DNA from: a virus
Lineage: Duplodnaviria > Heunggongvirae > Uroviricota > Caudoviricetes
Virus record (IMG/VR): IMGVR_UViG_2706794683_000010
Strand: one strand, 5' to 3'
DNA: 4,557 bases
The notes under the pieces are model-generated. The model was given only the letters and a program-made list of their open reading frames with translations. It was not told the origin of the DNA and ran no database searches. Shown in pieces: positions 1 to 4,557 of the stretch (position 1 is the stretch's first letter; every line of letters begins with the position of its first letter). The translations under genes and the position numbers were made by a program.

Positions 1-107
1 GGCTGGGACGGAAGTCGCTGTCGTTCTCAAAATCGGTGGAGCTGCATGACAAAGTCATCGGGCATTATCTGAACATAAAACACTATCAATAAGTTGGAGT
101 CATTACC
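1..107 (+). repeat. Left terminal inverted repeat (IR-L), 107 bp; exact reverse complement of 4451..4557
   Basis: Base-by-base comparison of 1..107 with the reverse complement of 4451..4557 shows 107/107 identity; identity ends abruptly at 108 (c) versus the complement of 4450 (t). GC-richer outer part (1..~60), AT-rich inner part (~61..107). Confidence 0.97.
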
Positions 108-489
108 CGTTAAAACATCTGCAGATAATGACGTTGACTTGGATACAGATGGATTCAGACAACTGAGGATATCGTGCCCATCCCCTTCTGCCAGCGGTGC
201 GATTATATTGAGAAAAGCTTCTTATGAATTCGGCAAAAGTATAGGTGTATTTGATTTTGCAAACAATGCATCACCAGCGACGATGACATTTTTGATCCCA
301 ATATATAAAGATGATGATTTTGATTCAGATACTGTTGGTTTTACATTTGCGTTCAAGATGCCAAGAGGCCAGTTTTTTGTAGATGTAAAAGAAAACGGGA
401 ATATCAGAGCTGGAGTTAATGTTAATGGCGAGTCGGGAGTGACCTACGAAAATTGCAAATTGAATATGAAAGATATTAATGATGATTAA
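94..489 (+). CDS. Hypothetical acidic protein, 131 aa, AT-rich moron-like ORF; start uncertain (TTG at 94 inside IR-L, weak SD; first in-frame ATG is at 283)
   Basis: A 396-nt open frame in about 38% GC DNA (my count for 101..489: 146 G+C of 389), where stop codons would normally be frequent. TAA stop at 487..489 is followed 8 nt later by a canonical intrinsic terminator. No signal peptide or hydrophobic segment is apparent by eye. I do not recognise the family. Confidence 0.5.
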   Translation: MESLPVKTSADNDVDLDTDGFRQLRISCPSPSASGAIILRKASYEFGKSIGVFDFANNASPATMTFLIPIYKDDDFDSDTVGFTFAFKMPRGQFFVDVKENGNIRAGVNVNGESGVTYENCKLNMKDINDD

Positions 490-496
490 TATATAA

Positions 497-521
497 GCCG
501 CCAGAAATTGGCGGTTTTTTT
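497..521 (+). terminator. Rho-independent terminator: G-C rich stem (498..503 CCGCCA paired with 509..514 TGGCGG), 5-nt loop GAAAT, then T7 tract 515..521
   Basis: Directly read from sequence: gCCGCCAgaaatTGGCGGttttttt. Lies 8 nt after the stop of the 94..489 ORF and 15 nt before the start codon of the next gene. Confidence 0.8.
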
Positions 522-535
522 ATAGTGGAGACAGT

Positions 536-1927
536 ATGGACTTACCTTCTTTACCTTCTCTTTCTTCACTCTTTTCTGCATCTTCAGGTATCAATTGGCG
601 CGATAATCTTTACGACGCTTCATTTCGTGGCGTTCCGTTTTCGGTGGAGAGCGACGAGGGTTCGTTCGGACGCCGCGTTCAGGTCCATGAATACCCAAAC
701 CGTGACAAACCGTACACGGAAGATCTCGGGCGTGCCACGCGACGGCTGACGATTAATGCGTATCTCGTTGGTGATGATTACGCAGAGCAGCGCGACAGGC
801 TGATTACAGCGATTGAAACCGCCGGGCCGGGGACGCTGATCCATCCGCAGTTCGGTGAAATGCAGGGCTGTATTGACGGGCAGGTGACCGTTTCTCACTC
901 CGGCACTGAAGGCCGTATGTGCCGGGTTTCATTTCAGTTTGTTGAGAGCGGGGAACTGTCATTTCCGGTCGCCGGAGCTGCAACCGCCAGAAAACTGGAG
1001 GAGTCGTCCGTATTCCTGGATGAGTTGATTGAAGACATGTTCGGCGATTTTGATCTCGCGGGAATACCGGACTTTATTCAGAACGATGTTATTGCCCGGA
1101 CGACCGATATGCTGGGAACCGTTCAGACAGCTTTCAAAATGGTTAATTCGGCTGTTTCTGCCGGAGCGAGACTACTGCAGGGCGATTTATCCGTCATTCT
1201 GATGCCGCCGTCGGTTGCCAGTGATTTTGTGCATACGTTGCAGGATACCTGGCGGGCCGGAACCCGGCTGGTGGATAACACACAGGATCTGGTGCAGTCC
1301 ATAACGACAATGTCCGGCATTACGCTGGACCCAGGACTGGCACCGCGTGCGGTGTGGCCCACAGATTCCGCATCGGTTATCAGGCAAAAACAGCAGACAA
1401 ACCTTGTGGCTGCTGTCATCCGGACGACGGCAATCAGCGAAGCCACAAGGGCGGTCACTTCACTGCCACAACCCGGAAGCCTGGTGAAAAATCAGCAGGC
1501 GGTTGTGGCTGTTGGTGGTTCCACTGAACGTCAGTCCGATATTATTCACGTTTCTCATCCGGCACTTGACAGCGTGGCAGCCAGCACAGGACAGGATGAG
1601 AGAGCGCAACCACCCACGCGGGAAAATCTCACCATCATACGCAAATCGCTGAACGCGGCGATTGAACAGGAGCTCAGGCGTACGGCGGATGACAGGCTGT
1701 TTTTTCAGCTGACGTCATTACGTACAGAACTGAACCGGGATATTCAGGCGCGTCTGGTTCAGACGGAGGAAACCGCAGAGCGAACGCCAGCGGAAGTTCT
1801 GCCTGCGCTTGTTCTGGCTGCGTCATGGTACGACGATGCGTCCCGTGAAACTGATATCCTGGATCGAAATGCCATCTCTCATCCGGGCTTTGTTCCGGTC
1901 AGGGCATTAAGGGTACCCGTCAGATGA
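536..1927 (+). CDS. Phage Mu gp43 (N)-like DNA circulation protein, 463 aa
   Basis: ATG at 536 with GGAG Shine-Dalgarno at 527..530 (5-nt spacing). The N-terminal region WRDNLYDASFRGVPFSVE...FGRRVQVHEYPNRDKPYTEDLGRATRRLTINAYLVGDDY matches my memory of the DNA circulation protein N-terminal domain of Mu N-like proteins. Stop TGA at 1925..1927 overlaps the next start (ATGA). Confidence 0.85.
   Translation: MDLPSLPSLSSLFSASSGINWRDNLYDASFRGVPFSVESDEGSFGRRVQVHEYPNRDKPYTEDLGRATRRLTINAYLVGDDYAEQRDRLITAIETAGPGTLIHPQFGEMQGCIDGQVTVSHSGTEGRMCRVSFQFVESGELSFPVAGAATARKLEESSVFLDELIEDMFGDFDLAGIPDFIQNDVIARTTDMLGTVQTAFKMVNSAVSAGARLLQGDLSVILMPPSVASDFVHTLQDTWRAGTRLVDNTQDLVQSITTMSGITLDPGLAPRAVWPTDSASVIRQKQQTNLVAAVIRTTAISEATRAVTSLPQPGSLVKNQQAVVAVGGSTERQSDIIHVSHPALDSVAASTGQDERAQPPTRENLTIIRKSLNAAIEQELRRTADDRLFFQLTSLRTELNRDIQARLVQTEETAERTPAEVLPALVLAASWYDDASRETDILDRNAISHPGFVPVRALRVPVR
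542..559 (+). repeat. Perfect 9-bp tandem direct repeat (ttaccttct x2) inside a 45-nt polypyrimidine tract (541..585) at the 5' end of the N-like CDS
   Basis: 542..550 and 551..559 are both ttaccttct and encode LPS-LPS. In 541..585 I count 40 pyrimidines of 45 nt on the + strand. Confidence 0.7.
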
Positions 1928-3006
1928 ATGATACCGTTTTACTTCGGGTTTCCGGTCGCGAATGGGGCGGCTGGACATCCGTCCGTATCAGTGCGGGCAT
2001 TAACCGTATTGCCCGGGATTTTAATGTTGCCATTACCACCCGCTGGCCCGGAAGCCGGGATTATCAACCCCGGATAAAAAATGGTGAGCTGGTTGAAGTG
2101 CTTATCGGGGATGAGCCTGTGCTCACCGGATATGTGGAGGCACTACCGCTTCGTTATGACGCCAGCAGCGTCAGCATGGGAATTGTCGGGCGAAGCAAAA
2201 CAGCCGATCTGGTTGACTGCTCTGCTTTGCCACTCCAGCAGAGCGGAAAAAACCTGCTCAGAATAGTCAGTGAACTGGCTGCGCCATTTGGCATCACCGT
2301 TGTTGATGCTGGCGTGCCGCAGACAGCGGTGATTGATGCCCAGCCGGAACACGGCGAAACCGTTGCCGATTGTCTTAACCGGTTACTGGGGCAGGTTCAG
2401 ACGCTGGCTTATGACGATGAATGCGGGCGACTGGTTCTGGGAAAACCCGGAACAGGTAAAGCGGCGACGGCGCTGGTGCTGGTGCTGGGAGAGAATATTC
2501 TTTCCTGTGACACGGAAAGAAGCATCAGAGAGCGGTTTTCTGAATATCAGGTCAGTGGGCAGCGCCCGGGCAACGACGATGATTTTGGTGAGGCCACCAT
2601 TGCCGCAATACGTCAGACCATTCAGGACAGTGGCGTGACCCGTTATCGCCCTTTGTTGATTCAGCAGTCAGGCACAGCAACGACAGCAACCTGTAAGGCC
2701 CGTTGTGAATTTGAAGCGCGCCAACGGGCTGCGCTTACCCGTGAGACAACATATACGGTTCAGGGCTGGCGGCAGGGCAGTGGCGCGTTATGGCGTCCGG
2801 GGTTATCTGTCATCGTTTTCGACCCGCTGAATAATTTTGATAATGATGAACTGGTGATCGCAGAAGTTACCTATAACCAGGACGACCGGGGCACGACGAC
2901 TGAATTACGGGTTGGCCCGGCAGATGCTTATCTCCCCGAGCCTGTTACCGCCAGGAAGAAAAAAATGTTGAGGAGGATTTCTGATGAACGGGTTTTCTCT
3001 TCGTAA
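1924..3006 (+). CDS. Phage Mu gp44 (P)-like baseplate hub / tail protein (P2 gpD-like late control D family), 360 aa
   Basis: ATG at 1924 overlaps the upstream stop by 4 nt (translational coupling). Size and position immediately after the N-like gene fit the Mu order N-P-Q. The N-terminal sequence resembles Mu P-like tail proteins from memory. Stop TAA at 3004..3006. Confidence 0.85.
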   Translation: MNDTVLLRVSGREWGGWTSVRISAGINRIARDFNVAITTRWPGSRDYQPRIKNGELVEVLIGDEPVLTGYVEALPLRYDASSVSMGIVGRSKTADLVDCSALPLQQSGKNLLRIVSELAAPFGITVVDAGVPQTAVIDAQPEHGETVADCLNRLLGQVQTLAYDDECGRLVLGKPGTGKAATALVLVLGENILSCDTERSIRERFSEYQVSGQRPGNDDDFGEATIAAIRQTIQDSGVTRYRPLLIQQSGTATTATCKARCEFEARQRAALTRETTYTVQGWRQGSGALWRPGLSVIVFDPLNNFDNDELVIAEVTYNQDDRGTTTELRVGPADAYLPEPVTARKKKMLRRISDERVFSS

Positions 3007-3448
3007 TCTGATTTCCCGGGCTGTCATCACGGCGGTGGATTCCGCCAGAAAGTGTCAGTCTGTAGGGTTGAAAATGATAGCCGGAGATCAGAAACAACAC
3101 GTTGAGCACCTTGAACCTTATGGTTTTACATCTGCCGCACAGAACGGTGCTGAGGGCGTTGCTTTATTTCCGGCGGGCGATCGTTCTCATGGTGTGGTTG
3201 TGGTCGTGGCTGACAGACGTTACCGGCTGAAAGGACTGAAACGTGGGGAAGTGGCGCTTTATGACGATCTGGGACAGTCCGTTGTCCTGACCCGTTCCGG
3301 TATTGTGGTGGACGGGGCCGGGAAGGCCATAATTTTTAAAAACGCGCCTAAAGCGCGCTTTGAAATGCCAGTCGAATCCACCGCCGATATTACTGACAAT
3401 TGCGACAGTGGCGGGATCACTGACACGCCGGATCAACCGATGGGCTGA
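2984..3448 (+). CDS. Phage Mu gp45 (Q)-like baseplate spike / baseplate assembly protein V family, 154 aa
   Basis: ATG at 2984 preceded by AGGAGG at 2971..2976 (7-nt spacing); overlaps the upstream gene by 23 nt. The region GVALFPAGDRSHGVVVVVADRRYRLKGLKRGEVALYDD resembles the OB-fold N-terminal domain of gpV-type spike proteins from memory. Stop TGA at 3446..3448. Confidence 0.8.
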   Translation: MNGFSLRNLISRAVITAVDSARKCQSVGLKMIAGDQKQHVEHLEPYGFTSAAQNGAEGVALFPAGDRSHGVVVVVADRRYRLKGLKRGEVALYDDLGQSVVLTRSGIVVDGAGKAIIFKNAPKARFEMPVESTADITDNCDSGGITDTPDQPMG

Positions 3449-3453
3449 AAATC

Positions 3454-3864
3454 ATGATGATTAATGTTAACGGGCGACCCGTGTCGACCGGGGCTTCGAT
3501 CGACCTTCTGACGCGTGCTGTGATTATTTCGCTTTTTACATGGCGGCGTGCCGGGCGTGATGATGCACCACGGATATTTGGATGGTGGGGGGATACCTGG
3601 CCTGCGGTTCAGAATGATCGCACGGGGTCGCGTTTGTATCTGTTGCGACGCAGCAAGCTGACAAATAAAACCCCGCAGCTTGCCAGAGATTATGTCCGTG
3701 AGGCGCTGGCGTGGATGGTGGAGGATGGTGTTGCTTCCCGTCTTGATATTAACGCTGTCCGGACCGGGACAGACTCGCTGGCACTTGCCATTACCATTTA
3801 CCAGCGTGACGGCAATATTCACAACATTATTTTTGATGATATCTGGAGTGAACTGAATGGCTGA
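3454..3864 (+). CDS. Phage Mu gp46-family baseplate protein, 136 aa
   Basis: ATG at 3454 (ATGATG; weak SD), 5 nt after the upstream stop. Size and synteny match the small gene between Q and the Baseplate_J gene in Mu-like tail modules. Stop TGA at 3862..3864 overlaps the next start by 8 nt. Confidence 0.75.
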   Translation: MMINVNGRPVSTGASIDLLTRAVIISLFTWRRAGRDDAPRIFGWWGDTWPAVQNDRTGSRLYLLRRSKLTNKTPQLARDYVREALAWMVEDGVASRLDINAVRTGTDSLALAITIYQRDGNIHNIIFDDIWSELNG

Positions 3865-4531
3865 CAGTCAGTTTTATCGCCCCGGCCTCCCGCAACTTAT
3901 TTCTATGATCCGGAGCGATTTATTAACCCGCTTTGAGCAGGATACGCTGCTTCGTCGTATGGATGCGGAAGTGTATGCCCGTGTACAGGCTGCAGCCGTA
4001 CACACGTTGTACGGGTATATCGATTATCTTGCCAGAAATCTGTTACCGGACGTGTGTGATGAAGACTGGCTGTACCGGCACGCCAGAATCAAACGCTGCC
4101 CGCGAAAAGAAGCGGTGGCAGCCCGGGGATTTGTGCGCTGGGATGGCGTAGAGGGGACGCCGGTATTGCCAGCGGGAACGCAGATCCAGCGTGATAATCA
4201 GGTGACCTTTACCACGACGGCGACGGTGACCGCAGCCGATGGTCTTCTCCGGGTGCCTGTTGTGGCAGACGAACCGGGATCGGCGGGGAATACGGATGAT
4301 GGTATTGCCATGCAACTGGGAACACCCGTCAGTGGTCTGCCGTCCACAGGGTACGCTGACACCATTACAGACGGTGAAGATATTGAAAATCTGGAAATAT
4401 GGCGTGCCCGCGTTATGGAACGTTATTACTACATTCCACAGGGGGGCGCAGGTAATGACTCCAACTTATTGATAGTGTTTTATGTTCAGATAATGCCCGA
4501 TGACTTTGTCATGCAGCTCCACCGATTTTGA
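3857..4531 (+). CDS. Baseplate_J-like protein (Mu gp47 / P2 gpJ family), 3'-truncated: family-like sequence for about 198 codons (3857..4450), then 26 repeat-encoded codons and a TGA stop inside IR-R; probable pseudogene or fusion
   Basis: ATG at 3857 overlapping the upstream gene. Synteny after the gp46-like gene; N-terminal region with conserved-looking aromatic and charged residues (YARVQAAAVHTLYGYIDYLARN, FVRWDG). The ORF crosses the IR boundary at 4450/4451 and terminates at 4529..4531. Its length (224 aa) is below what I recall for this family (roughly 300 aa or more, from memory). Confidence 0.7.
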   Translation: MADSQFYRPGLPQLISMIRSDLLTRFEQDTLLRRMDAEVYARVQAAAVHTLYGYIDYLARNLLPDVCDEDWLYRHARIKRCPRKEAVAARGFVRWDGVEGTPVLPAGTQIQRDNQVTFTTTATVTAADGLLRVPVVADEPGSAGNTDDGIAMQLGTPVSGLPSTGYADTITDGEDIENLEIWRARVMERYYYIPQGGAGNDSNLLIVFYVQIMPDDFVMQLHRF

Positions 4532-4557
4532 GAACGACAGCGACTTCCGTCCCAGCC
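4451..4557 (-). repeat. Right terminal inverted repeat (IR-R), 107 bp; exact reverse complement of 1..107
   Basis: Same comparison as IR-L. The junction at 4450/4451 lies inside the Baseplate_J-like ORF, immediately after a G6 run (4441..4446). Confidence 0.97.

Follow-up and report, generated by a model that had tools for sequence, protein, structure and literature searches.

A baseplate gene that breaks off in the middle, exactly where one arm of a perfect inverted repeat begins, raises the question of what cut it. In the 4,557-nt stretch of viral DNA analysed here (hereafter the window), a gp47-like open reading frame (ORF) runs up to the repeat, continues into it in frame and stops there. 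A preliminary description had offered two readings, a pseudogene in a defective prophage remnant or a gene to which the repeat supplies an alternative C-terminus, and it left the cause of the break unnamed. What broke the gene is a simple IS1 transposition, which duplicated 9 bp of the target site. The positions that had been given for the cut ORF at the repeat boundary all hold on re-reading, and the repeat itself is real: its two 107-nt arms lie 4,343 nt apart and are 100% complementary. The features of the window are listed in Table 1.

Table 1. Positions of the genes, IS1 ends and target-site duplications in the window; L001 is the prophage locus of E. coli FDAARGOS_944.
Feature	Position	Strand	Length	Basis or remark
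IS1 right (IRR) end, element positions 662-768	1-107	+		3' end of insB and terminal inverted repeat
Target-site duplication copy of the left IS1, CGTTAAAAC	108-116		9 bp	
phrog_5586 gene, 3' part, codons 35-160 of 160	108-489	+		Beheaded by the left IS1
Terminator-like hairpin with T-run	495-524	+		Consensus scan, 10-pair stem then TTTTTTT; pattern match only
Mu gp43-like DNA circularisation protein gene	536-1927	+	463 aa	Pfam DNA_circ_N, E=3e-36; annotated L001 homologue
Mu gp44/GpP-like baseplate hub gene	1924-3006	+	360 aa	Pfam GpP-like_1st, Gp44-like_2nd, GpP_4th
Mu gp45-like baseplate spike gene	2984-3448	+	154 aa	Pfam Phage_Mu_Gp45, E=1.7e-26
Phage GP46 family gene	3454-3864	+	136 aa	Pfam GP46, E=4.5e-33
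gp47-like chimeric ORF	3857-4531		224 aa	ORF translation; stop at 4529-4531
gp47/Baseplate_J wedge gene, first 198 codons	3857-4450	+	Intact gene, 360 codons	Pfam, BLASTP, PHROG 6
Target-site duplication copy of the right IS1, GGGGGCGCA	4442-4450		9 bp	Holds 5 of the 6 G's of the G6 run
Second IS1 copy, right (IRR) end	4451-4557	-		Exact reverse complement of 1-107

The native portion of the gp47 gene comprises 594 nt, or 198 codons, and its last residues (...RYYYIPQGGA) are encoded up to position 4450, with a G6 homopolymer at 4441-4446 just before the junction. The 26 codons that follow read GNDSNLLIVFYVQIMPDDFVMQLHRF in frame and end in the stop. By profile score the 224-aa product belongs to PF04865: residues 69-201 match Pfam Baseplate_J with 87.5 bits (E=1.2e-24) against a gathering cut-off of 21.1 bits. 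PHROG 6 (baseplate wedge subunit) matches residues 1-198 (E=5.6e-45). The homologue WP_000785589.1 of E. coli FDAARGOS_944, annotated as 'baseplate J/gp47 family protein', is an unbroken protein of 360 aa that spans the entire Baseplate_J profile (2-255 of 255). In BLASTP, the window product is the same as WP_000785589.1 through residue 198 and divergent after it, the homologue going on with DPDYVIW... and the window product with GNDSNLL...; the alignment of 201 residues with 199 identities includes a chance D at residue 201. Family similarity therefore ends where it had been said to end (residue 201 by Pfam, 198 by PHROG 6 and BLASTP), and the earlier judgement that 198 family-like residues are incomplete agrees with the intact homologue.

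The window shares the N-terminal 198 residues of the family that includes Mu gp47, P2 gpJ and T4 gp6 (PF04865), but unlike these proteins its copy covers only profile positions 2-137 of 255, and the C-terminal half lies beyond the IS. Against a full length of ~255 profile positions and ~300 aa or more, the window product has 198 native residues and is without profile positions 138-255 and the Baseplate_J_C part. The truncation would have been only apparent if full-length homologues themselves ended near residue 200-225; full-length members have 360 aa, so the reading of a truncation stands. On these comparisons, the window carries a fragment of a gp47 gene and no complete Baseplate_J member. 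No similarity between the 26-aa tail and Baseplate_J C-termini was found by Pfam, BLASTP or PHROG. The sole match of the tail is phrog_27209 ('unknown function'), whose positions 56-83 of 83 align with residues 197-224 of the chimeric ORF (4445-4528; E=1.6e-16), a family that probably owes its existence to spurious ORFs predicted over IS1 ends in phage records. The Mu gene order gp43-gp44-gp45-gp46-gp47-gp48 also holds for this locus: gp44, gp45 and gp46 lie upstream in the window, and Phage_Mu_Gp48 and the tail fibre lie beyond the IS1, this downstream half being read from complete genomes.

The nature of the repeat is seen in the locus L005, where the 107-nt arm is identical to the last 107 nt (662-768) of a 768-bp IS1. 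The left arm closes with ...GGAGTCATTACC at 107, and the right arm opens with the IS1 terminus GGTAATGACTCCAACTTATTGAT, which in L005 is located at 10595, at a distance of 768 bp from the IRL terminus. We take the ends of IS1 to be imperfect terminal inverted repeats of ~23 bp, GGTGATGCTGCC... and GGTAATGACTCC..., on an element of ~768 bp, and at both L005 insertions these termini are located exactly 768 bp apart. The two L005 copies are exactly 768 bp long and mutually identical, their InsA/InsB ORFs carry the Pfam domains Zn_ribbon_InsA, HTH_Tnp_IS1 and DDE_Tnp_IS1, and the A6C frameshift motif AAAAAAC is found at IS1 position 307. Of 5,426 E. coli genomes, 4,958 contain matches to the arm within features annotated as 'IS1-like element IS1A/IS1B family transposase', the number of places per genome having a median of 10. 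Both IS1 copies face the 4.3-kb segment with their IRR end, the left one reading rightwards and the right one leftwards, and the window itself includes only the last 107 bp of each. Positions 4451-4531 of the right arm make up the read-through tail and the stop of the chimeric ORF. Judged by these matches, the window starts and ends inside IS1 copies, and the contig breaks within the IS.

Each IS1 copy has a target-site duplication of its own. In L005, GGGGGCGCA stands on both sides of the right IS1 and is single at the intact E. coli prophage site; CGTTAAAAC stands on both sides of the left IS1 and is likewise single at the intact E. coli site. Both insertions thus display the direct 9-bp duplication, single at the empty site, by which an IS1 insertion is recognized. 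Excising the right IS1 and one duplicate in silico yields a 360-aa ORF with one change (R238H) relative to the E. coli protein, and excising the left IS1 and one duplicate yields a 160-aa ORF identical to the E. coli one. Since the two copies have their own, differing duplications and excision mends both genes, the two IS1 events were separate insertions in situ. The G6 run, after which the preliminary description had placed the boundary, is indeed located there; it has no slippage role, as five of its G's belong to the duplicated target, and it stays G6 in the uninterrupted gp47 gene. The run is merely part of the duplicated target.

An exact look-up identifies the 224-aa chimeric protein as UniProt Q3YYR0 (Q3YYR0_SHISS) of Shigella sonnei Ss046. 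The protein occurs on 230 contigs; older records label Q3YYR0 'head assembly protein', and many slightly shorter entries, on contigs of 4,500-4,553 bp, are named 'baseplate J/gp47 family protein, partial [Shigella sonnei]'. The window is identical to the NCBI draft contig CWTZ01000230.1 (assembly GCA_001252555.1), and we infer its assignment to S. sonnei from this sequence identity together with the source names for the protein. Ten chromosome-scale places, on records of up to 5 Mb, carry the chimeric protein; the record HE616528.1 is presumably S. sonnei 53G. The same gp47/IS1 junction is present in every complete genome retrieved via the chimeric protein, and the gene order is common to all ten places. 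Its left part consists of tail sheath, tail tube, tail assembly chaperone, tape measure and IS1 (InsA, InsB); in the middle follow the gp43-like, gp44-like, gp45-like and GP46 genes, the 224-aa ORF and the opposite-strand IS1 (InsB and InsA on the minus strand); on the right are a Baseplate_J_C ORF of 131-137 aa, Phage_Mu_Gp48, tail-fibre genes (Caudo_TAP, phage_tail_N) and DUF4376. The next gene after DUF4376 in L005 is the tmRNA gene, and smpB lies past DUF4376 in nine of the ten places. The preliminary description had expected the rest of gp47, together with gp48 and the tail-fibre genes, outside the window, and in the complete genomes they are found directly past the 768-bp IS1.

Queries of 140 nt spanning the two IS1/prophage junctions matched none of 5,426 complete E. 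coli genomes, and the exact 42-nt right junction had no match among one-genome-per-species contigs; the latter miss is likely due to a representative genome, for the species including S. sonnei, that is without the insertion. Intact ssrA-side prophages of E. coli with a Mu-like tail, such as those of AST215 and A36, share 97-99% nucleotide identity with the window over 108-4451 and have the same gene order, but in them gp47 is unbroken with 360 aa, the A-run at the gp44 end is A8 and gp45 has 177 aa. The best relative among complete E. coli genomes is FDAARGOS_944, with 99% identity over 108-4451; its near-identical copy differs in carrying an ISEc60 insertion of its own. This nearest relative with an intact gp47 is also decaying: ISEc60 (IS4-like) splits its tail-sheath gene, and immediately beyond the tail-fibre end lies a frameshifted ipaH effector gene (L001 781-1971 and 15275-16411, respectively), the latter being indicative of an EIEC/Shigella-like background.

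The gp47 gene is not the only damaged part of the prophage. The complete genomes contain no module for head, replication or lysis between the tail genes and the host genes upstream of them, which carry PseudoU_synth_2 and YfiO domains; moving upstream from the sheath gene, this interval is occupied by an IS3-family element, a 120-aa remnant of a head-maturation protease (Peptidase_S78) and an IS4-family element. Judged by its gene content, the prophage is a defective, tail-only remnant at ssrA/smpB. The pseudogene reading of the preliminary description agrees with the IS1-split gp47 and with the loss of the head genes. Near the 3' end of gp44, the window has an A7 run at 2959-2965. Of 13 complete S. 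sonnei loci, 11 also have A7 and two have A6, against A8 in three intact E. coli prophages. The loss of an A frameshifts the last gp44 codons, lengthens the ORF by 23 nt into gp45 and abolishes the TGATG stop/start overlap.

The C-terminal part of the wedge protein (T4 gp6, P2 gpJ, Mu gp47) joins neighbouring wedges, and because of this role the N-terminal 198 residues should not suffice to form a baseplate. With the C-terminal half missing and the prophage degraded, baseplate function would have been lost. Against such a loss, nothing interrupts the 224-aa ORF itself, which could be expressed, and gene calling yields a 131-aa ORF with Baseplate_J_C in the stranded 3' part.

Further observations concern the other genes of the window. 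Positions 108-489 align to L001 6001-6382 within the CDS WP_000594909.1, and the match of the 160-aa gene to phrog_5586, a family of unknown function, has E=9.7e-89. The left IS1 cuts off the first 34 codons of this gene, whose intact protein has an N-terminus (VIKPFLMTVAILTSCC...) resembling a lipoprotein signal peptide; the ORF at 94-489 in the program-made list begins at a TTG inside the IS1. A promoter and terminator scan of the window found nothing above shuffle expectation except the hairpin at 495-524. In the gp44-like gene, a GCTGGT hexanucleotide repeat (2472-2489) is present in one, two or three copies across S. sonnei genomes, a small in-frame variable-number repeat that gives gp44 products of 358, 360 or 362 aa. 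The gp45-like gene has a 69-bp in-frame deletion at 3408-3414, between two GTGGCGG direct repeats, by which 23 codons (LSMQQMRQAYNAHKHTENGDGGG) are gone. The 69 bp are present in all 10 complete genomes checked, and the L001 E. coli prophage aligns across the same stretch; other gp45 copies have 177 aa, and the 154-aa form is found on just two contigs in the collection. An H-x-H motif lies within the lost stretch; we take it to resemble the metal-binding tip of Mu gp45-type spikes. The deletion may be genuine, produced by slippage in this strain, or it may reflect a collapse in the assembly. Identity to FDAARGOS_944 steps down from 99.7% (108-3414) to 96.7% (3408-4451) at the deletion point, a hint that prophage lineages meet near the gp45/gp46 junction, at a mosaic or recombination boundary.

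Could the truncated gene nevertheless be a functional fusion? The IS1 end would then provide an alternative C-terminus, and the 224-aa chimera would be a working shortened baseplate protein or an interference protein. The chimeric ORF is open and exactly conserved on 230 contigs, and its N-terminal 198 residues are the same as in the intact E. coli protein. However, the tail is the first in-frame read-through of the IS1 terminus, bears no Baseplate_J similarity and matches solely a PHROG of unknown function, the product is without profile positions 138-255 and Baseplate_J_C, and the surrounding prophage is without head genes and bears other lesions. As S. sonnei is of very recent clonal origin (PMC7373316), exact conservation is accounted for. 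We therefore regard a functional fusion as very improbable. What is left of the proposed repeat-supplied C-terminus is that the ORF does read through the IS1 end to the first stop; the tail gained in this way is unlike Baseplate_J C-termini. It may be tempting to speculate that the fusion, with the open gp43-gp46 genes, is kept as a dominant-negative wedge that poisons superinfecting Mu-like or P2-like phages, or that the inverted IS1 pair is a switch inverting the 4.3-kb segment; we give these ideas the same very small chance.

The geometry of the locus, two identical 768-bp IS1 copies in inverted orientation bracketing the segment, would also fit a composite transposon that brought the baseplate genes as a unit of 4.3 kb. 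Against this, each IS1 is flanked by its own 9-bp duplication, the two duplications are unlike, and removing each IS1 mends both broken genes. The segment is, moreover, collinear with the flanking tape-measure gene and with gp47-C/gp48, as in the intact E. coli prophages. The single shared duplication and the foreign cargo of a Tn9-like IS1 composite transposon are not found here. Separate duplications and a cargo in line with its flanks refute the arrival of the pair as a composite transposon, a reading to which we assign an even smaller probability than to a functional fusion. The least probable of all, to the point of being negligible, is that gp47 only looks truncated through an error of assembly or sequencing, be it a chimeric contig end or a frameshift in the G6 run. 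Such an error might be suspected in a draft contig from short reads whose end lies in a repeat and whose break comes after a homopolymer, but the identical junction is present in finished and long-contig genomes and the sequence past 4450 is IS1, not frameshifted gp47. The complete genomes with the same junction rule out an assembly chimera, and slippage in the run is ruled out by its unchanged length, the intact gene having G6 as well.

Together, our results leave hardly any doubt that gp47 was cut by IS1 transposition with a 9-bp duplication and is an IS-split pseudogene in a Mu-like-tailed prophage of the S. sonnei lineage; no observation speaks against the insertion itself. The insertions, their duplications and the gene order are direct observations, and we propose the following course of events for them. 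A 768-bp IS1 entered gp47 at codon 198/199, duplicating the 9-bp target GGGGGCGCA. The upstream half of gp47 now reads 26 codons through the right end of the IS1 to the first in-frame stop, giving the 224-aa chimera, and the downstream 162 codons are left stranded beyond the IS1. A second, identical IS1 landed independently and in the opposite orientation, 4,343 bp upstream, in the small gene after the tape-measure gene. Short-read assemblers fail to bridge the many IS1 copies, and the piece between the two emerges as a separate contig of ~4.5 kb, the window, both ends of which consist of 107 bp of IS1. A similar pattern surrounds the gp43-like protein, for which 3,271 blocks are indexed: the longest carrying contig measures 2-5 kb in 3,132 of them, as expected when assemblies stop at IS1, an element present in many copies. 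What appears as an inverted repeat enclosing a phage module is thus a contig-end effect over two real insertions.

The case closely resembles the IS1 inactivation of genes described in Shigella (PMC7373316), with a 768-bp IS1, IRL/IRR, InsA/InsB, the A6C motif, a 9-bp duplication and a position inside a CDS. It is unlike those cases in that a prophage gene is hit and not a metabolic gene; nothing essential differs. In S. sonnei, IS insertion is directly responsible for 50% of the pseudogenes, and the branch from which lineages II and III arose saw a rapid expansion of IS1 (PMC7373316). The IS1 inactivation of gp47 is ordinary and of a kind already known, and the chimeric protein has long been in public databases. 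Its importance lies mainly in annotation hygiene: the label of the 224-aa ORF should be IS1-interrupted gp47 pseudogene. IS copies split short-read assemblies into small contigs with inverted-repeat ends, which can look curious when viewed alone; the locus behind this one is a textbook case of IS1-driven prophage decay in Shigella sonnei.
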